This document shows positions 34,029 through 63,321 of a DNA stretch of 64,000 nt, piece by piece (the first letter of the stretch is position 1; each line of letters begins with the position of its first letter). The stretch is taken from the NCBI GenBank assembly GCA_001794215.1, contig MGJK01000015.1, positions 23,684-87,683 of the forward strand, read 5' to 3'. The position numbers and the translations under genes were made by a program. Source of the DNA: Candidatus Yanofskybacteria bacterium RIFCSPHIGHO2_01_FULL_44_24 (GTDB lineage: Bacteria; Patescibacteriota; Minisyncoccia; 2-02-FULL-40-12; GWA2-44-9). Below the pieces are notes generated by a model. It did not search any database. It was given only the letters and a program-made list of their open reading frames with translations, and was not told the DNA's origin.

Positions 34029-34052
34029 CCCGTCTCTCACTCTATTATGAAA

Positions 34053-34874
34053 TGAAAACGCCCGTGGGGTTACCACGGGCAGCGATTCTTTTCCAAGGCT
34101 CGCCGAGCCCGATTTCAAACTAAGTTCAACGCATGGTCTCTCTCCTTCCGGCAGCCTGCCGGACGAGTTTTAGATCCGGCCATTTGTTGTTTGTTTGGTT
34201 TCCCGAAGGCCCCGCGCACGTTTTCAGGCGTGCGCAGGACTCATCCATCGGGAAGGCGTGTCGGGTTAATTTTGGGAACCTTCCACGATCCCCGGTCCGA
34301 CGTCGATACTCCAGCGCTCTGCCAACTGCGCCGGAGGTCCGGGCGAACCCGGACGAGATTTCAACGTGGAGTTTCGCCGAAGCGCCACTCCACGAATGGG
34401 TCTTGATTCTCTTATCGGATCCCCATCTCTCTCCGACAAGAAAGCAATGACATGTCTTCGGTCATCGCTCAGGTAGGCCGAGAGCCGCAATGATGTGAGC
34501 GACCGGCATTTTCACCGGTTCGCCTGATCATCGCAGCACTACGGCCCATTCAGAAGCAGAGGAGGAGTTCTTCGCTCGCGCCACCCGCGTTTCGTCGGCC
34601 GCCGTTTCAGAGCGCTTCTCGCACCCCCCTCTGCCATCTTTTGAGCTCCCTTTCGCCGTTTATAGGCACATAAGGGCTCGAAGCAGCCAACAAACAAGAA
34701 AACTGATAGAGATAGATTCTAACCCTACGATTCTAATCCAGATCCTTTCAGGCCTATTTCTCTTACTTGAATGCCCGGATAGTGGATATTTTGAGGTATT
34801 TGCTGGCTTTTTCGAGCCCTCCACCTTAGTAAAACTAAGGCAAAAGCTCACTTTATGTAAAGAACTGATTCTAC
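34053..34874 (-). ncRNA. Candidate large structured ncRNA (~820 nt)
   Basis: Own promoter and terminator, dense GC-rich hairpins, no credible ORF. Confidence 0.55.
34055..34080 (-). terminator. Intrinsic terminator
   Basis: GCCCGTGG-TAACC-CCACGGGC followed by GTTTTC on the minus strand. Confidence 0.7.
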
Positions 34875-34880
34875 CTTACC

Positions 34881-34908
34881 ATTATAGCAGATAGGTAAAA
34901 TTTGTCAA
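34881..34908 (-). promoter_or_regulatory. Sigma70 promoter with extended -10
   Basis: TTGACA-16-TATAAT preceded by TGC. Confidence 0.75.
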
Positions 34909-51879: not shown

Positions 51880-51909
51880 CAGAGTTTATAAAGTTCCGAG
51901 TTGATAAAG

Positions 51910-52254
51910 TTATAAAGTTTTTATCAGACCAGAAATCAACTTAGATATCTCCGAACATAGCATCTTAATAGTCTCAAAATCTTTGTCGTTGATATATGTT
52001 AACTTAACTGCCAAATACGCCATGGATCTTACCTCCCCGCAAGATCCCTTAGCTATGAATAAAAAGTGCCTGAATTCGTTATTGCTTCTTCTCTCAAAAC
52101 CTTCGGCGATGTTGTTACCTATACTGACCGTGGCTCTCTGTATTTGGTCTCTGAAACTATAATCCTTGCTTGCCCTAAAGAGTTTATAGATTAAAACGGT
52201 GAGCTCTTGTGATTTCTGCCAGGATATAATTTCTTCAAAACTATTAATTTTCAT
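51910..52254 (-). CDS. Four-helix-bundle protein (23S rRNA IVP family)
   Basis: SFEEIISWQKS, QIQRATVSIGNNIAEG, FLFIAKGSCGE. Confidence 0.9.
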   Translation of the reverse strand: MKINSFEEIISWQKSQELTVLIYKLFRASKDYSFRDQIQRATVSIGNNIAEGFERRSNNEFRHFLFIAKGSCGEVRSMAYLAVKLTYINDKDFETIKMLCSEISKLISGLIKTL

Positions 52255-52289
52255 TTAAACTTTATGAACTTTATAAACTTGATGAACTT

Positions 52290-52850
52290 TTAACTGTTGA
52301 GGAGCTCCGCTTCTTTCTTTTTCGTAAGCTCGTCAAATTTTTTATTAAGATCGTCAACAATCTTTTGGATCTCCTCCTTGGCTCTATGCAGATCATCTTC
52401 GCGGGCAGTTTTAGCCCGGACTTCGGCCTGAACTTTTTTCAATACATCCTCCCTTACCTGCCTAACCTTTATTCTGGACTCTTCGACTTTCTGATGAAGA
52501 ATGCGAATAAATTCTTTGCGCCTCTCTTCTGTCAGCTGAGGCAGAGTAAGTCGAACGCCGTTTGAATCCGCAGAAGGGTTTAAACCGCTCGAACTTTCCC
52601 GTAAAGCTTTTTCAATCAAAGGTATGGCCTGCTTATCCCAAGGCTGAATAAGTATAACCCGAGGCTCAGGAGTAGTGATCGTAGCCAATTCCTTTATTTT
52701 CAATCGTGAGCCCATATATTCCACAGCCACATCCTCAACCATACTGGCGTTAGCCCGGCCGGTCCTGATGCCGGCAACTTCGCTTCGAGCATGCTCGAAA
52801 GCAGCGTTAAAATCCCCCTTCTTTTGATTAATTAAGTCTTTGTAAGTCAT
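52290..52850 (-). CDS. frr: Ribosome recycling factor
   Basis: IRTGRAN, IQPWD, PQLTEERRKE. Confidence 0.95.
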   Translation of the reverse strand: MTYKDLINQKKGDFNAAFEHARSEVAGIRTGRANASMVEDVAVEYMGSRLKIKELATITTPEPRVILIQPWDKQAIPLIEKALRESSSGLNPSADSNGVRLTLPQLTEERRKEFIRILHQKVEESRIKVRQVREDVLKKVQAEVRAKTAREDDLHRAKEEIQKIVDDLNKKFDELTKKKEAELLNS

Positions 52851-52876: not shown

Positions 52877-52907
52877 AAAAAAAAGCTGGGGGGGGGTTAC
52901 CTCCAGC
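52877..52907 (-). terminator. Intrinsic terminator
   Basis: GCTGGAGG-TAAC-CCCCCCCCAGC followed by T8 on the minus strand. Confidence 0.75.
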
Positions 52908-53413
52908 GTTGATTCGACCGCGGGAGGGATAGAGCTTCGCGCTCTCCCTCCCGCCCCGCGGCCACTGTCGTCTCTTTCTGTTTCTGCTCGCCCGATGATC
53001 GGCGGGTCGCCGCGCCGCTGTCCCGCGCCGCAGGCGACCCGCCCTTCTTTCTTTCTCCGATCTCCGATGGATCTTTTGTTAGAGCTTTGCCCCCGATCAG
53101 GCACTCAACCTGACCGGAGAACGGTCGTCGCTTGAGTGGCGACGGGAGGAAGCCTTGCGCACATCGGCGCTTGGCCCTTGCCTCCAGCTCTGCGATGGCC
53201 CCATCCGGGCACCACCCCTTAACCGCCCTCAACGCCCGGGGATCGCGGCCGCGTTCCGGACACCAAAGAATTAGAGATCACGGGCAGGTCCGCCTGCTTT
53301 TCGAGACAGGCGGACCTCGAGGTTGGCCATTTCGGCGTTACCCCACTGCCCCCGAAAAACCGCTTAAAAAGTAATCTTTCAGGGACAGTGTCAGCTCAAA
53401 GAACGTATATTAC
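52877..53413 (-). ncRNA. Candidate structured ncRNA (~540 nt)
   Basis: Own promoter and terminator; very GC-rich hairpins; no credible ORF. Confidence 0.55.
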
Positions 53414-53419
53414 CCTCTC

Positions 53420-53447
53420 ATTATAGCAAATCTACAGAATCTGTCAA
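53420..53447 (-). promoter_or_regulatory. Sigma70 promoter with extended -10
   Basis: TTGACA-16-TATAAT preceded by TGC. Confidence 0.75.
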
Positions 53448-57542: not shown

Positions 57543-57788
57543 TTAGTAATCCGCAGGCTGATCCACCTGCCAACCAGGCAGAAATGATCGGACAATATCG
57601 GGATTATACGGGCCAAACCCGTAAGATGTTCCAAAAATTCTCTTTCCCGCAAGATCAGCAATACCTCCTCCTCTTACCGAGGACAAGGGTATGCCATTCT
57701 GCTGAGCGACAGATGAATGAGAATCGTAGTTGTAGTCTATTGACCCGAATATAACTCTCTTATCCGTAACAACAAACTTGACGGTCAT
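57543..57788 (-). CDS. Hypothetical protein
   Basis: 81 aa; AGGAGG RBS. Confidence 0.65.
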   Translation of the reverse strand: MTVKFVVTDKRVIFGSIDYNYDSHSSVAQQNGIPLSSVRGGGIADLAGKRIFGTSYGFGPYNPDIVRSFLPGWQVDQPADY

Positions 57789-58010: not shown

Positions 58011-58166
58011 CTATTCAAGCTCGGCCTTAACTTCCTGCCGTATTTTATCCTTCTCGGCGGTTCTTCGGTATTTTCCGCCTTTATCGGCAACATGGAATCC
58101 GCCCGTTTGACGGGGCAAAGGAATCCGTATTTTCTGATAGGCTTTCTTGACTCGTTTCTTCTTCAT
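58011..58166 (-). CDS. Small basic protein (51 aa, not in ORF track)
   Basis: MKKKRVKKAYQKIRIPLPRQTGGFHVADKGGKYRRTAEKDKIRQEVKAELE*; stop lies within a terminator-like hairpin. Confidence 0.55.
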   Translation of the reverse strand: MKKKRVKKAYQKIRIPLPRQTGGFHVADKGGKYRRTAEKDKIRQEVKAELE

Positions 58167-58238
58167 GATTTTCTCCATTTCATTATATCATTTTTAAGGA
58201 GGGTAGTCCGACAAGTCGGACTACCCCATGTTTGAGGC

Positions 58239-58793
58239 CTACCCCTTTGCAAGCCCCATTTCTCTCACGATTTCCGGAAGCGGAATATCCGTCTCCTTGT
58301 GGAGCTGGACAGCCGCCATAAGATCCTTGAGAGAGATCGGCATCAAGGTGTTAATCACTACCGGATCGGTAATGCCTAAACCTAAGAGCAGAGCGGCGGA
58401 TGTCGATGGCCCGCCTATCAAGAACGGAGCCATCAGAGAGATGTAAAGCGGCGACCCGCCGACATCACTGGGAAGCGTGCCGAGAAAATCGGCCACCCTT
58501 TCGATGATTGCACCGCGACTCGTCTCATCGCCCATGATTACGGCATGGCACGCCGCTACCCTGACGATCAGTTCCATCTCTTCCCTTGAACCCTCGAAGA
58601 TTGTGGCATCCTTGCAGCCGAGAACTACCGTCTCGACAACAACCTTGGTTTCAGAGAGATCAGTTACGCTACCTCCGTAGCCAAGTTCGTAAACCACCAT
58701 GCTCTCAAGAGCCGCCATGAGCGGCCGCCGACAACCGCCGATGTCTCTCTTCATTCCTTGACCGTTGTCTCGCAAATTAGTTTGCCGGATCAA
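58239..58793 (-). CDS. Orphan protein (array ORF 7)
   Basis: AGGAGGTG RBS with TTG start; followed by hairpin GGGTAGTCCGAC/GTCGGACTACCC. Confidence 0.65.
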   Translation of the reverse strand: MIRQTNLRDNGQGMKRDIGGCRRPLMAALESMVVYELGYGGSVTDLSETKVVVETVVLGCKDATIFEGSREEMELIVRVAACHAVIMGDETSRGAIIERVADFLGTLPSDVGGSPLYISLMAPFLIGGPSTSAALLLGLGITDPVVINTLMPISLKDLMAAVQLHKETDIPLPEIVREMGLAKG

Positions 58794-58896
58794 CTTACTC
58801 ACCTCCTTTTTAAAGTTCCCTCTTTTAATGACCCGGGATCTGTCATCTACCGATTGAAAGCTCGGCAGAAAGCATGTTGTAGAACCCGCTCCGGAA

Positions 58897-59076
58897 TTAC
58901 TGGAGCGGACCCCAATCGACCTCGACGCCAAGCTCCTTGGCGGCAAGCTCAGTGAGTTCGCGCTTCTCCGCCTCGGAAAGCTGTTTGAGCTCCTCCGAGA
59001 AGTCTTTGAGCGCCTGCCCCGGCTTGTAGCCGAAGTAGTCGCGCAGAATTTTCATTGCTCCCGTTTTCTGGGCCAT
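58897..59076 (-). CDS. Small helical orphan protein (array ORF 6)
   Basis: AGGAGG RBS; MAQKTGAMKILRDYFG..., 59 aa. Confidence 0.7.
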   Translation of the reverse strand: MAQKTGAMKILRDYFGYKPGQALKDFSEELKQLSEAEKRELTELAAKELGVEVDWGPLQ

Positions 59077-59260
59077 AGCGGCCTCCTGTTTCTGTTTTAA
59101 AAAGACAGTACTTTCCCGCCGATCAAAGGCCCGTCGGGTTGCCTGTTGTTTCAAAGAACAGGAGAGAAGCCTTAAAGTCCGGCTGTACAGTGGCCTTCAT
59201 CGTCACATACGGACGCCTCGCCTCATCGTACGTATTGCGCCGGTTTGCTTGTTTACTCCT

Positions 59261-59351
59261 CTCCCGCCAAAACCATCAGCTACCCTTCATGATATATCAT
59301 AAAGGGTATTGAAAACTTTGGTGGGAGTCCCGACCGACGCAAGGCCGGGAC
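59261..59351 (-). repeat. Element A copy 5 (small hairpin plus CTCCCACCAAAG long hairpin)
   Basis: ctcccgccaaa...tttggtgggag abutting gtcccg...cgggac. Confidence 0.85.
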
Positions 59352-59354
59352 GTA

Positions 59355-59407
59355 CAGATTCTGTTGCCAGGCTCTGTAAGGCCCCGTCAGCCCAAAGCTG
59401 ACAGATT
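59355..59407 (-). repeat. Element B copy
   Basis: 52/53 identical to 60801-60853. Confidence 0.9.
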
Positions 59408-59423
59408 AACCGGGTCACAACGA

Positions 59424-59816
59424 TTAGAAGTGTCCGAGGTAGCCGTAGAAGTTGGCTACTTCGGCAAAGTACTCGTCAATACCGGGGATGCCATCCTCTT
59501 CAAGAGGCCGGCCTTCGGTATCAACGGTGCAACTCTCACCGACAGAATAACGGAAACGTTTTCCGGTTCCGTCGGTGCCGACGTAAAATTCGTGAGACGC
59601 GTTATGACCGACGCGCCAGAACTTAACGCCGTTGACGACGTGAGGCTTGTCAATCCACGGAGTATGCGGATTGTTGCCTTTGCCCCAATTGTACATGAGA
59701 TTCAACAGAAGAATCTCCTCCACAACAGGGTCGCCGTTAGAGTTTTCTGAAGCAACTTTTCTGAGTCGCTCCATAGCTCTTTCTTCTCGCTGTTCTTCCC
59801 GCTCTTCTTTTGTCAT
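59424..59816 (-). CDS. Orphan protein (array ORF 5)
   Basis: MTKEEREEQ..., 130 aa; starts just after element A copy 4. Confidence 0.65.
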   Translation of the reverse strand: MTKEEREEQREERAMERLRKVASENSNGDPVVEEILLLNLMYNWGKGNNPHTPWIDKPHVVNGVKFWRVGHNASHEFYVGTDGTGKRFRYSVGESCTVDTEGRPLEEDGIPGIDEYFAEVANFYGYLGHF

Positions 59817-59830
59817 AGGACTGGGGATTT

Positions 59831-59895
59831 CTCCCACCGAAGCCTCATAGACGCAGAAGTATGAGACTTCGGTGGGAGGCCGACATAAGTCGGCC
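59831..59895 (-). repeat. Element A copy 4
   Basis: 59824-59883 is 59/60 identical to 60438-60497. Confidence 0.9.
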
Positions 59896-59985
59896 GGATT
59901 TTTACACTCAGGACGAGTAACCTGTTTTAGCAGAACAGGAACCGCAATCGGCGGGATGGATGTGAGTTGGAAGGACTCACGCTCC

Positions 59986-60014
59986 TTCTGTTGCCAGGCC
60001 GTCGCTCGGCCCCG
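59986..60014 (-). repeat. Element B partial/divergent copy
   Basis: CGGGGCC-GAGCGAC-GGCCTGGCAACAGAA. Confidence 0.7.
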
Positions 60015-60028
60015 CGTCGCAAGATAGA

Positions 60029-60340
60029 TCAGCCGGCAAGGCTGATCCGAAGACCCAGTAAGTCGCTCAAACGAGAAATTGCCTCGTCCGGCTTCCAACC
60101 GCAGTCCTCGAACACCAGGAAGCACGCCTCACGCAAATTGCGGGAAGTCCAGCGATATTTCACGCTGTTTCCAACAAGTTGCATGCGGCGGTCAGCCAGG
60201 GCTATCCTGCTTCTGCACGAATCACAGAACGGATTGCAAAGTCCGGCGACCTCGAACTTGACGGTTTTACCGTCAATGAGAATCCGCCGACCAGTCATCC
60301 ATCCTGCGACATGCACATACAGGCAAGTCTGCTCCATCAT
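60029..60340 (-). CDS. Cys-containing orphan protein (array ORF 4)
   Basis: GAGGAGGTG RBS; CNPFCDSC; 103 aa. Confidence 0.7.
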   Translation of the reverse strand: MMEQTCLYVHVAGWMTGRRILIDGKTVKFEVAGLCNPFCDSCRSRIALADRRMQLVGNSVKYRWTSRNLREACFLVFEDCGWKPDEAISRLSDLLGLRISLAG

Positions 60341-60444
60341 TTCACCTCCTCGATTCTGAAATTCCCCAGAATAACCAACCAGATGTGCCTTCGCACAAAA
60401 TGGCCAGTAAATTAAGGGTACATTTTTTTGAAAGAATGGGATTT

Positions 60445-60512
60445 CTCCCACCGAAGCCTCATAGACGCAGAACTATGAGACTTCGGTGGGAGGCCGAGTC
60501 AGAGACTCAGCC
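60445..60512 (-). repeat. Element A copy 3
   Basis: ctcccaccgaag...cttcggtgggag plus ggccgagtc/gactcagcc. Confidence 0.9.
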
Positions 60513-60592
60513 GGTTGATTTGTTTACGCCGAAAACCATTCAGCGGATGCATTATCTGTTCCCGGGACTGCGATCACACCCCGGTGCAACCT

Positions 60593-60775
60593 TTATTTTG
60601 CACAGATAGGCAAAGTAGGGATACGAACGACCAATTCGCCATCAACCACGAAGCTGAAGAGTTCGCCGTTAATATTGACAGACCATTCATTTCCCAAAGA
60701 GCAGACACTGACTTCTACTCCGATTGCTGCCTTAAGAATCTCTTCGATAAGACTCTCTAATATATTTTTCTCCAT
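60593..60775 (-). CDS. Small orphan protein (array ORF 3)
   Basis: GAGGAG RBS after a boxA-like GTTCTTTGA; 60 aa. Confidence 0.6.
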   Translation of the reverse strand: MEKNILESLIEEILKAAIGVEVSVCSLGNEWSVNINGELFSFVVDGELVVRIPTLPICAK

Positions 60776-60800
60776 CTCTCCTCAAAGAACTCGGGACATG

Positions 60801-60853
60801 CAGATTCTGTTGCCAGGCTCTGTAGGGCCCCGTCAGCCCAAAGCTGACAGATT
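60801..60853 (-). repeat. Element B copy
   Basis: AATCTGTCAGCTTTGGGCTGACGGGGCCCTACAGAGCCTGGCAACAGAATCTG. Confidence 0.9.
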
Positions 60854-60864
60854 GGGTCCAACTC

Positions 60865-61149
60865 CTATTTGAAGAAGTTGGCGAACCATCGCGGCTCGAG
60901 GATCACTACACCCTTTTCGGACATCGCCTCTTTCATGGCGAGAATTTCGTCCTTGAAGGCGCGCTTCACCTCATCGGCGTTCATTGATTCGACTTTGCGG
61001 TAGAATCCCTGAACGGCCACCGAGATGTTCAACGACTCCTGGGGTGTAACTCCAGGAGCGACCCATGAAAAGAGCGGTTTGCTCTTCATGAGAAGGTTGG
61101 GAGATGGTTCTACGCGAGCCACAGGGTTCCATGACACGTCCTGATACAT
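60865..61149 (-). CDS. Orphan protein (array ORF 2)
   Basis: MYQDVSWNP..., 94 aa; starts after element A copy 2. Confidence 0.6.
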   Translation of the reverse strand: MYQDVSWNPVARVEPSPNLLMKSKPLFSWVAPGVTPQESLNISVAVQGFYRKVESMNADEVKRAFKDEILAMKEAMSEKGVVILEPRWFANFFK

Positions 61150-61172
61150 AGATTTTGCGCTACTTCTCCGCT

Positions 61173-61230
61173 CTCCCACCAAAATCTCTTTAAAGAAACT
61201 TTGGTGGGAGGCCGAGTTTTACACTCGGCC
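61173..61230 (-). repeat. Element A copy 2
   Basis: ctcccaccaaa...tttggtgggag plus ggccgagt/actcggcc. Confidence 0.85.
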
Positions 61231-61373
61231 GTAGAGGTGGAAGTGAAAGACAGGGTCATAGCGAACAGCGAGCAACCGTCCGCTTCAGGCTTGTAACCCC
61301 TTCTGTCTTGCTCAAGGACAGCAGACTCACTACTCCGTCATGATCGACGGCGAGTCTGTTTTGCCGCCCTTCA

Positions 61374-61463
61374 CCCCCACCAAAACCTTGTATTCGCATG
61401 TGCGTATTTGTAACGCTATTCGCATACAAAACTTTGGTGGGGGTCCCGGCATAAGGCCGGGAC
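61374..61463 (-). repeat. Element A copy 1
   Basis: cccccaccaaa...tttggtggggg plus gtcccggc/gccgggac. Confidence 0.85.
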
Positions 61464-61471
61464 TGGATGCG

Positions 61472-61813
61472 CTATAAGTAGCGCTTGAAGGCTTGGCGGG
61501 CGGCCTGCTGGCGCTGGACCCGACGCTGCTCCATCTCAACTACCGTCTGCTGGTAGCGATAGAAGCGGAGTCCGGCTTTGCGGCCGAGGGTCGCACAACG
61601 ACCACAGTGGATGTGGTCGGCCAGATCCTTGACCGAGGGCCAACGCCCGACGACCTTGCGGATGGTCGACAGGGCCGGCACCCAGGCCTCGGACTGAGCC
61701 ATCTTCGTCTGACACGGCTTGCCGGGTTTCGGCTCGCCATGACATCCGAAGGGCTTGTCCTGAGCCTTGTCGAGGGACTTCTCCGCCGCCGCTGTCACAA
61801 TCTGATCATTCAT
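61472..61813 (-). CDS. Putative zinc-binding orphan protein (array ORF 1)
   Basis: GGAGG RBS; CHGEPKPGKPC...HIHCGRC; 113 aa. Confidence 0.7.
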   Translation of the reverse strand: MNDQIVTAAAEKSLDKAQDKPFGCHGEPKPGKPCQTKMAQSEAWVPALSTIRKVVGRWPSVKDLADHIHCGRCATLGRKAGLRFYRYQQTVVEMEQRRVQRQQAARQAFKRYL

Positions 61814-62090
61814 ACACACCTCCAAAAATGAAAGAACTGCTGACCGAAAAACAATAATCAATGGAGCTCAAGGTATAAGCTTGTTGCCCCTTTCTGAAAC
61901 AATATGTGAAACATGCCTATTCGCACATATTGCCTCAGAAAGAGGCCGGAGCTTTGATTGTGGGGGCCGCGTTAATTATCTAGACGGCTGATACCACTAT
62001 ATGCTCAAAGCTCCACCGAGCTGAGCTCGGTCAATCCTCTAACTTTGTCTGGCCGGCAACTTTCGATGCCGATTTAACTTAACTGCCAGT

Positions 62091-62118
62091 ATTATACTCA
62101 AATGAAATAATTTGTCAA
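62091..62118 (-). promoter_or_regulatory. Sigma70 promoter of the small-ORF array
   Basis: TTGACA-16-TATAAT. Confidence 0.75.
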
Positions 62119-62267
62119 GCCCCTCGGACAAAAAATAAAAAAATGTTCAAAGTAACGGCTTAAAGCCTTGCTTTTTTGAACATGGCAGGTGTCATGATAA
62201 CCAATAAAATAACCGTGATTGTTTTTTTACAAGAAAAAATAAACGCGATCATTTTTGTCACCCTTTC

Positions 62268-62296
62268 TTGACAAAAATTACGGTAAGGCGTATAAT
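62268..62296 (+). promoter_or_regulatory. Divergent sigma70 promoter
   Basis: TTGACA-17-TATAAT. Confidence 0.75.
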
Positions 62297-62301
62297 AGAC
62301 A

Positions 62302-62550
62302 TGTAGCCTGAGGGCAGGCTACCCTCGACAAGAGGAACCAGCGGGAGAAACGCAGGCCTGTTCCCCGTCGACAGGAGATCGGATCTCAAGCGCGAAAAAG
62401 GGATAGGCCAAATGCCTCCTGCCAAAGGAGGTCCAACGTGGGCTCGAGATGAATTCAATTTTAAGAGCTCAAGAGAACTTTAGAAATTAGTGGTGAAGCG
62501 AGTCATGGGTTTCGGCCGTCCACCCTTTCAGGGGGATGGCCTTTTTGTTT
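62302..62550 (+). ncRNA. Candidate structured ncRNA (~245 nt)
   Basis: Promoter; hairpins such as GTAGCCTG/CAGGCTAC; terminator GGCCGTCC/GGATGGCC plus T-run; no credible + strand ORF within it. Confidence 0.5.
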
Positions 62551-62562
62551 CCCAAGAGAGAA

Positions 62563-63321
62563 TTATATCTTGCCGGAGATATTCCAAATCAAGTTGAGCA
62601 GGTTCCGGAAAGAATTTGCGATTTCTTGGTGCCTGATCATGGCACCGGAAATCTTTCCCTTCAAAGCCGCGATAGCGACAATATCATCATAGACGGTTAT
62701 GTCTACATTAAAAGGCATTTTATCCGGGGAAATATATCGAGCTTCCCGCAACATAGCGGGATCGCTTTCTTTAAATACCGGCCCCTTTGAAGATGTGTAT
62801 ATGGAGCGCGAATGAATACCCTTTTTAACCCTTTTGTCAGAATACGATTCCGAGTCTGGAGAATCAGGAAAAAGCTTAATCACATCATCAAGAGAAGTAA
62901 TACCTATGATTTTCTTTTCTTTGGCCTTTAGAAATTCCCGCTCCATCCTCATCAACCCCTCTTTTCCCTCGAAAAATCTTACTTCAGGCTTTTGATCGCC
63001 CAAACTGAAAACCGTCATAAGCTCGGGCATCAGTTTATTAAGGGTTTCTTTCTTGCCTTCCCAATCTCTCCTTTCCCGTTCAATAACAGACTCTAAGTAT
63101 TCAGGCGACTCAGCTACGAATAGCTGTTTCTTGCCTTTATTTTGAGTGCTTACTAAGCCGAGTTTTTTCAGAGATTCAACCTGGACATAAGCAGTAGGCC
63201 GGTTAATCCCGGCTTTGGCCGATATTTCAAGCATTGTGGCCGGACCAAGCTCAAGCATGGCCAAATACACCTTAGCTTCGTTGTCTGACAAACCGAGATT
63301 TTTTAGCTGGTTAACAAGCAT
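62563..63321 (-). CDS. TrmB family transcriptional regulator
   Basis: LGLSDNEAKVYLAMLELG HTH; PEVRFFEGKEG. Confidence 0.88.
   Translation of the reverse strand: MLVNQLKNLGLSDNEAKVYLAMLELGPATMLEISAKAGINRPTAYVQVESLKKLGLVSTQNKGKKQLFVAESPEYLESVIERERRDWEGKKETLNKLMPELMTVFSLGDQKPEVRFFEGKEGLMRMEREFLKAKEKKIIGITSLDDVIKLFPDSPDSESYSDKRVKKGIHSRSIYTSSKGPVFKESDPAMLREARYISPDKMPFNVDITVYDDIVAIAALKGKISGAMIRHQEIANSFRNLLNLIWNISGKI

Follow-up and report, generated by a model that had tools for sequence, protein, structure and literature searches.

A chromosomal array of small-gene and structured-RNA cassettes, probably exchanged at a conserved hairpin element, in Patescibacteria

We analyzed a 64,000-nt stretch of DNA (the window) on contig C15 of the 971-kb, 99%-complete genome of Candidatus Yanofskybacteria bacterium RIFCSPHIGHO2_01_FULL_44_24 (Patescibacteria; hereafter, the host genome), and found an array of small open reading frames (ORFs) whose spacers hold copies of two structured repeats, elements A and B. 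With a probability that we put at roughly 0.55, the array consists of exchangeable cassettes of small genes and non-coding RNAs (ncRNAs), in which A is a predicted cleavage site of the transcript and cassettes are swapped by host recombination. An earlier note on this DNA had proposed a gene-cassette or RNA-processing system that captures or individually processes small genes; comparative data supported exchange at A and indirect evidence a function at the RNA level, whereas active capture by a dedicated enzyme was not supported.

Cassette exchange at element A

The gene set and gene order are not invariant in relatives. Both vary, and at the locus linked to trmB, which encodes a TrmB-family regulator, cassette content differs among genera. 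With numbers denoting ORF families and X, Y and Z non-coding modules, the host array reads 1-Z-2-3-4-5-6-7, compared with X-2-1-Y in genome G014, 4-V-X-W-6-1-Y-5 in G047, 1-5-2-R in G048 and X-1 in G001. In a set of 20 arrays, 9 of the 22 cassette pairs seen at least two times occurred in both orders, ORF1 and ORF2 five times each way; this set leaves out the near-duplicate metagenome loci L245, L248, L249, L253, L254, L257, L259, L260, L261, L264 and L267, as well as L252, which had no model hit.

We compared the flanks and cores of 66 located A copies from 26 arrays (G092 excluded; 500 permutations). Similarity of the left flank tracked the upstream cassette (0/500) and that of the right flank the downstream cassette (0/500), while the core of A tracked the genome (1/500) and not the cassette (347/500 and 166/500). 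This combination indicates that exchanges take place inside A.

Within the host array, A4 (59824-59883) and A3 (60438-60497) are identical at 59 of 60 positions, as the earlier note reported, and its 52/53 pair proved to be the inner part of two B copies (59346-59407 and 60792-60853) that match at 59 of 62 positions over their whole length. Homology of the ORF4 cassette to genome G045 spans A3+5 to A4+0, and the ORF2 trailer of G045 is continued by B2-A5. The host has therefore likely gained nested blocks: two 62-bp B copies bound one of 1446 bp, in which two 60-bp A copies bound a unit of 614 bp. Near-identical repeats within one array, in several cases flanking unrelated cargo, were also found in G047, G092, G109, G174, L251 and L262, and their lengths and ends vary (42-212 bp). 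In G092, five unrelated ORFs lie between repeats that are 92-98% identical and up to 212 bp long, each reaching from the final codons of an ORF to the Shine-Dalgarno (SD) sequence of the next. Each G092 repeat (L223:9330-9380 and the other copies) contains a perfect SD together with a mini-ORF of 9 codons, whose end lies in the small hairpin of A. Element B is a trailer family, found after ORF2, ORF4 and short ORFs in relatives; a third host copy shares only a 14-nt core (59986-59999), and a fourth, at 60555-60566, is degenerate.

Order flips, variable content and the flank test support the modular shuffling suggested earlier, and we regard cassette exchange at A as very likely. A back-joint from 61230 to 59355 was not accepted as an excised circle: it appeared in two runs at low depth, and the B-A junction of a relative explains it better. 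At L248:838-875, the sequence switches from the L267 type to the L257 type within a 38-bp identical stretch of ORF1, where a recombinant and an assembly chimera are indistinguishable.

The duplicated repeats are very unlikely to be assembly artefacts, since independent runs tile the array and the repeats recur in independent genomes. Contigs from four public runs, one of which may be the source data, cover the stretch; A3 and B1 are bridged with both flanks by one run, and A4 by none of the listed contigs. This unbridged copy, the G+C content of the array (0.49-0.56, compared with ~0.43 in the flanks) and a phage-type deaminase in the cargo of relatives would be in line with a decayed prophage or foreign island, or with repeats produced by mis-assembly. 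Such an origin, already largely refuted, is highly improbable: besides the tiling by independent runs, the same locus stands beside trmB across genera, families and orders, its cargo is under purifying selection, and neither a relative of ORF1 in viral contigs nor a PHROG match for the seven ORFs at E < 0.01 was found. In a genome-wide search of the host, A and B were confined to the array.

Element A as a probable RNA-level element

All five A copies claimed by the earlier note are present (fold z -6.3 to -9.2), and in five of the seven spacer or leader segments folding is well in excess of that of shuffled sequences (z -4.9 to -8.3), which is not the case for the two short ones (z -0.2). Each A consists of a 5-9-bp hairpin of variable sequence that abuts, without a spacer, a 16-24-bp stem with a conserved base (CYCCCACCRRAG ... 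YTTYGGTGGGAG). In a MAFFT alignment of 18 copies, 94.4% of cells were paired and 13 of 23 pairs showed compensatory changes (0/500 shuffles), compared with 84% and 6.5 in shuffles and with 42-60% paired in slid controls, which are lenient because the structure was set from those copies. A model-fitted alignment of 114 rows, including opposite-strand and weak hits, agrees with this structure. The stem is fully paired, with 18 contiguous pairs (95.7% paired) and no conserved extrahelical bases. A dispersed palindrome (core TATGATATATCATA) has 13 sites in the host genome, including 59280-59308 in the A5 loop; this and other palindromes recur in the A loops of many genomes.

We counted 201 G-U and 34 A-C pairs on the sense strand of 101 A stems, and sense minus antisense energies of -5.8/-6.0 kcal as RNA and -0.9/-1.1 as DNA; part of this bias may stem from the model of A, for which copies in sense orientation served as the training set. 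An alternative hairpin, in which the final four nucleotides of the 3' arm pair with UCCC or UUCC located 3-8 nt downstream, can form in 27 of 83 and in 7 of 44 copies, compared with 2.9 and 2.1 for shuffled sequences. It is weak and cannot coexist with the base of the stem; that it is most easily understood after loss of the 5' arm is our main ground for inferring cleavage. The sole SD-like sequence of ORF5 lies within the 3' arm of A4. A boxA-like GTTCTTT often follows A. Directly 3' of the stem, GTTCTT was present in 16 of the 59 copies from the order and 17 of the 42 from the class, against a background of 1.2%; it is close to the boxA consensus GYTCTTTAANA (PMC5725501). None of the A copies displayed was followed by a U-tract.

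Judging from these features, A probably acts at the RNA level. The G-U bias and the alternative hairpin suggest an RNA processing site, and RNase III would be the likely enzyme. It is unlikely that A is instead an uncut RNA element repeated along the operon, either with an antitermination or Nus-loading role like that of nut or put sites or as a segmental stabilizer, and that shuffling is a by-product of the repeats. The frequency of the boxA-like motif after A, far above background, would fit this alternative, as would the presence of NusB and the rRNA leader of G092, in which a long hairpin with the same TCCCGCC/GGCGGGA base precedes a boxA-like GAACTTTC. However, the alternative hairpin and the stem base compete, and removal of the 5' arm explains the former best, non-coding modules have A on both sides, and the rRNA leader of G007 contains no A-like hairpin.

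The repeats matched no Rfam family: in the Rfam searches, only tRNAs reached the gathering threshold, and the other matches were chance hairpin hits. We found no description of A in the literature searched, whose coverage stopped short of subscription journals and supplements.

Promoters and a candidate regulator

As the earlier note stated, one consensus promoter of the sigma-70 type (TTGACA-N16-TATAAT; 62118-62113 and 62096-62091) precedes the array; inside the array there is no further consensus promoter. This promoter and a divergent one both carry TGTC-N8/9-TTGACA, which occurs in 4 of 46 consensus promoters genome-wide, all on this contig. A TrmB gene flanks 14 of the 26 related arrays, and TrmB is, syntenic genes aside, the only recurrent family among their 125 neighbour proteins; from this arrangement, TrmB likely represses the array. 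Control by LexA was rejected, since no LexA was found in the genome. The divergent promoter drives 62303-62560 (+) towards the end of trmB; this region, in which a CCTCC..GGAGG hairpin recurs in relatives (by eye), probably encodes a structured RNA.

The two further TGTC-N8/9-TTGACA promoters, in the regions 52880-53447 and 34050-34908 of the window (both minus strand), are each immediately followed by a boxA-like site and a highly structured tract. These tracts are 540-830 nt long and G+C-rich (z -6.8 and -8.5), gave no convincing ORF and no Rfam match, and are candidates for large ncRNAs of the same regulon.

A model of processing and exchange

In the reading that we prefer, a single long transcript would start at the one promoter, and NusB and S10 at the boxA-like sites would keep transcription processive across untranslated stretches. 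Cleavage within the 16-24-bp stem of A, likely by RNase III, would yield products that each bear a small hairpin close to the 3' end and, for about one third of the copies, a GGGA-N4-UCCC hairpin at the 5' end; it would also free the SD-like sequence held in the 3' arm. The freeing of an occluded ribosome-binding site by RNase III has a precedent (PMC5371410). Recombination or gene conversion between A copies, or between B trailers, would insert, delete or reorder whole expression units, because every A would be functionally equivalent. New units would probably arrive by natural transformation, and the operon would serve as an inducible accessory programme. Genes for RNase III, NusB, RecA and ComEC are present in the host genome.

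Several observations weigh against this model. RNase III is found in 101 and NusB in 99 of the 105 genomes of the order, in which A is patchy, so that their presence does not discriminate. The alternative hairpin is absent from two thirds of the A copies, and boxA from most. The primary sequence of the stem, with G-U at one position in 16 of 18 copies, is conserved beyond the known requirements of RNase III. For most pairs of A copies, the shared sequence amounts to arms of 10-14 nt, which is short for RecA; B trailers, and possibly ORF1, are further sites of module exchange, so that A is not the sole joint. The effects in the flank test are small (0.04), with significance inflated by the relatedness of the genomes and with some imperfect labels, and a weak association of the right flank with the upstream label was seen too (17/500). 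Finally, among the neighbours scanned, TrmB was missing for 12 of the 26 arrays, several of them cut off by a contig edge, and binding of TrmB to TGTC-N8/9-TTGACA is suggested by adjacency only.

Recombination machinery and alternative modes of exchange

The 125 neighbour proteins include no tyrosine or serine recombinase and no reverse transcriptase (RT); a single integrase of the insertion-sequence type was present. Active capture by a dedicated enzyme is accordingly not supported. The sole tyrosine recombinase of the host (PF00589) is Xer-like (128 bits, versus an IntI cut-off of 265) and lies on another contig, Cas1 was not found in the host genome, and RT genes are confined to C5 and C19, in agreement with the earlier statement that no integrase, RT or cas gene lies in the window. 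The RT on C5 adjoins Avd, with which it forms the genes of a diversity-generating retroelement (L027:4287-5763), and that at the start of C19 is partial and of a similar type. The genome also contains one Y1-type transposase gene and nine GIY-YIG matches, mostly in small genes.

We consider it quite unlikely that A is a single-stranded DNA (ssDNA) site, similar to attC or repetitive extragenic palindromes, for an enzyme acting in trans (Xer, HUH, or a small GIY-YIG/Ssn-type nuclease). Breakpoints inside A despite short homology, the 60- and 62-bp duplications and the PIN genes found inverted at or inside two arrays, a trait of sedentary integrons, speak for such a site. So do the palindromes often present in A loops and the several small GIY-YIG genes, given that Ssn is described as cutting ssDNA hairpins and modulating transformation in Neisseria (PMC11893778). 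However, the sense strand of 58199-62118 contains no RYYYAAC, consistent with the earlier remark that the repeats lack attC RYYYAAC/GTTRRRY ends; the stems are fully paired, their strand preference is small under DNA energies, the duplications vary in length and ends, and recombinases are limited as described above.

Still less probable is an origin of the cassettes as retro-copies, in which a borrowed RT would copy RNAs released by cleavage at A and the copies would be inserted into a different A. Cassette limits do coincide with the predicted processed RNAs, the G092 repeats frame their ORFs tightly, and two RT genes are available in the host genome; against this, one RT stands beside Avd and the other is partial and on another contig, no RT lies near any of the 26 arrays, and the inverted PIN genes sit within or at the edge of arrays. 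A broader possibility, also unlikely, is a class-wide capture process without integrase, in which one hairpin would define the unit both as RNA and as DNA, transcripts would be cut at A into capped modules of mRNA and ncRNA, and a dedicated trans-acting ssDNA hairpin nuclease or recombinase, or a borrowed RT, would re-insert modules at A, duplicating the resident copy.

Distribution across genomes

A covariance model of A matched, in the order, 29 of 105 genomes (E up to 0.01, including a few with one weak hit) and 25 of 150 other genomes sampled from the class (E up to 1e-4), compared with 0 of 150 further genomes drawn across the phylum, a set that doubles as a specificity control. In viral contigs, a loose A pattern gave 120 stretches, and the best of the 80 scored with the model had E 4.5e-4, so that these hits are likely due to chance. 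Among the distant loci listed, a consensus promoter typically preceded small ORFs that were separated by copies of A; in G131, approximately 10 A copies extend across 9 kb, with an inverted PIN gene inside. Homologues of ORF1 occur in named relatives that include four records labelled Candidatus Yanofskybacteria, and members of the group are reported to parasitize methanogens (PMC10936435). Four genomes of one genus (L207, L205, L206 and L210) carry A at a second locus as well, upstream of rpsF and, wherever the contig extends that far, following recA.

Cargo and organization of the locus

The features of the locus are listed in Table 1. The seven co-oriented ORFs of the earlier note were found on the minus strand, from 61813 down to 58239. 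Strong SD sites, attributed to most of them, precede five of the seven, ORF2 and ORF5 being the exceptions, and the terminal hairpin is present, without a U-tract. The locus reaches further than the limits proposed (58199-62118), to trmB, the divergent promoter and the genes at 58011-58166 and 57543-57788. Likewise, the proposed order of stop codon, B, variable segment, A, boxA and ORF applies to some spacers only: ORF1 has no B, the ORF2/ORF3 spacer has B without A, that of ORF6/ORF7 has neither, and A1 and A2 enclose a non-coding module.

Table 1. Features of the array and its surroundings (positions in the window; z, fold z-score)
Feature	Position	Strand	Remarks
TrmB-family regulator gene	62563..63321	-	PF01978, E 5.6e-17; single copy in genome
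Predicted divergent structured ncRNA	62303..62560	+	No conserved ORF; z -4.4
Divergent consensus sigma-70 promoter, operator-like TGTC..-N6-TTGACA	62256..62296	+	Also in related loci
Array promoter, operator-like inverted repeat TGTCCG-N6-TTGACA over -35 box	62091..62130	-	
Conserved structured leader RNA	61814..62084	-	z -6.5
Leader core GCCGTCTAGATAAT	61988-61975	-	
Leader long stem	61946-61886	-	
Leader boxA-like site	61837-61831	-	
ORF1, 113 aa	61472..61813	-	Four conserved Cys/His; commonest cassette
Element A1	61367..61467	-	
Non-coding module ncZ	61235..61366	-	Between A1 and A2; also in L265
Element A2	61166..61234	-	
ORF2, 74 aa	60865..61089	-	No strong SD; 9 homologous hits
B trailer copy 1	60792..60853	-	Left copy of 62-bp direct repeat around 1446-bp block
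BoxA-like site, SD and ORF3 (60 aa)	60593..60790	-	ORF3 60775-60593; no homologue in arrays searched
Element A3 and downstream alternative hairpin	60438..60516	-	GGGA-GAAA-UCCC
ORF4, 103 aa	60029..60340	-	CxxC motif; homologues in distant arrays too (by eye)
ORF4 trailer, B-type hairpin and two predicted H-type pseudoknots (by eye)	59903..60028	-	Spacer z -8.0
Element A4	59824..59902	-	59/60 identical to A3; contains only SD-like GGGAG for ORF5
ORF5, 130 aa	59424..59816	-	No strong SD; 42 hits
B trailer copy 2	59346..59407	-	
Element A5	59254..59355	-	Loop holds dispersed-palindrome copy 59280-59308
BoxA-like site and ORF6 (59 aa)	58897..59159	-	Site 59159-59153; ORF6 59076-58897
ORF7, 184 aa	58239..58793	-	TTG start, strong SD; no homologue in arrays searched
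Terminal hairpin without U-tract	58200..58227	-	z -4.7
Extended -10 promoter and small basic protein K (51 aa)	58011..58190	-	Gene 58011-58166; usual 3' neighbour
81-aa gene	57543..57788	-	Homologue is an A-flanked cassette in G047

The ORFs had been called orphans, which holds for ORF3 and ORF7 in the 20 arrays searched. The other five have homologues in related arrays, with nonsynonymous (pN) well below synonymous (pS) differences (for ORF1, pN 0.07-0.15 and pS 0.36-0.61), and ORF1, 2, 4, 5 and 6 are therefore real genes. ORF1, with 113 representatives at 50% identity, likely binds zinc through its conserved Cys/His residues. Searches of the seven ORFs against Pfam, PHROG and NCBIfam gave nothing convincing, and a PDB sequence search with profiles of ORF1 and protein K gave no hit. 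In the ESM Atlas, a homologue of ORF1 scored 0.86 against unnamed archaeal small proteins, below the lead threshold of 0.9, and ORF4 had no hit. Annotated cargo in relatives includes dCMP-deaminase-like (phage-type), Fic and PIN proteins.

Protein K, which carries the motif GGxHxxxKGGKYRR and has 112 homologues, belongs to no family, and its gene directly follows an A in some relatives. A likeness to ArfA-type ribosome rescue factors was rejected for lack of Pfam or PDB support.

Among the RNAs, module X, absent in the host, is a multibranch RNA of ~280 nt with compensatory changes in 24 of 71 pairs (five genomes); it moves as a cassette, with sites at L025:3004-3335, L026:5120-5451, L164:8081-8412, L165:15221-15552 and L203:1546-1877. 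The leader RNA showed compensatory changes in 11 of 24 pairs (13-sequence alignment) and no Rfam match. Likenesses to the hammerhead (pseudoknot module), to twister (leader and ncZ), and to hepatitis delta virus-like and RNase P T-loop structures (B) were dropped for want of a match.

Elsewhere, a short gene at 51890-52290 of the window (minus strand) lies between AT-rich inverted repeats (AAAGTTTATAAAGTT / AACTTTATAAACT type) and resembles, by eye, four-helix-bundle intervening-sequence cassettes, and in G007 the 16S rRNA gene is interrupted by an insertion with an ORF (L234:350-970).

Comparison with known systems

The array does not belong to the integrons, the promoter-early stem-loop (PeSL) elements, the clustered regularly interspaced short palindromic repeats (CRISPR) or any Rfam family. 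By analogy, it may be said to combine shuffling like that of T4 PeSLs with processing of the T7 type, and it belongs to neither.

Integrons, including sedentary chromosomal ones and clusters of attC sites lacking integron integrases, have one upstream promoter, promoterless co-oriented cassettes joined by single-strand hairpins, variable content and order, and occasional inverted toxin genes. Our array shares the single promoter, the co-oriented variable cassettes, the hairpin joints and the inverted PIN genes, but lacks attC R boxes, extrahelical bases and IntI. The T7 early transcript and rRNA precursors are reportedly cut by RNase III (Dunn and Studier 1973, cited in PMC5371410); with these, the array has in common a long polycistron, long intergenic stems (cleavage here being predicted), the presence of RNase III and boxA-like sites as in rrn operons. 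To our knowledge, however, T7 RNase III sites are not exchange points of a variable array. CRISPR arrays are similar in having a leader, boxA antitermination, repeat-delimited units (here with predicted processing) and duplication of a resident repeat around new units, but the units of our array are 150-1300 nt long and mostly protein-coding, its repeats diverge, and there is no Cas1.

According to two reports (PMC2839356; PMC4122927), PeSLs of T4-type phages are repeated intergenic elements of ~100 bp that flank unrelated small ORFans and serve as exchange points, without a known dedicated recombinase. As described there, a PeSL combines a terminator with its own promoter and resides in phages, and mini-circles have been demonstrated for PeSLs; in contrast, A has no promoter and, in the copies displayed, no U-tract, the array has one promoter and stands on a bacterial chromosome beside a regulator, and ncRNAs are also cargo. 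The NTS/dRS3 repeats of Neisseria, as described with the Ssn nuclease (PMC11893778), are also hairpin repeats around variable genes in a competent organism, and small GIY-YIG genes are present here too. However, A is limited to one locus in the host genome and is strand-oriented, and the palindromes inside A loops, rather than A itself, are the better analogue of NTS.

Significance

Patescibacteria have tiny genomes with many unexplained small genes, and the locus described here is a defined, class-wide site that gathers and exchanges genes of this kind. With it, repeat-mediated shuffling of cassettes extends beyond phages to a cellular chromosome, and the origin of gene cassettes without an integrase becomes directly testable. 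The locus also supplies a searchable marker (the model of A), a candidate pair of regulator and operator, and several structured RNAs of no known class. Should A be cut as predicted, it would be a natural portable part to stabilize or decouple genes in synthetic operons. If the class-wide capture process existed, it would give episymbiotic Patescibacteria a switchable and evolvable payload of small proteins and structured RNAs, possibly acting on their hosts.

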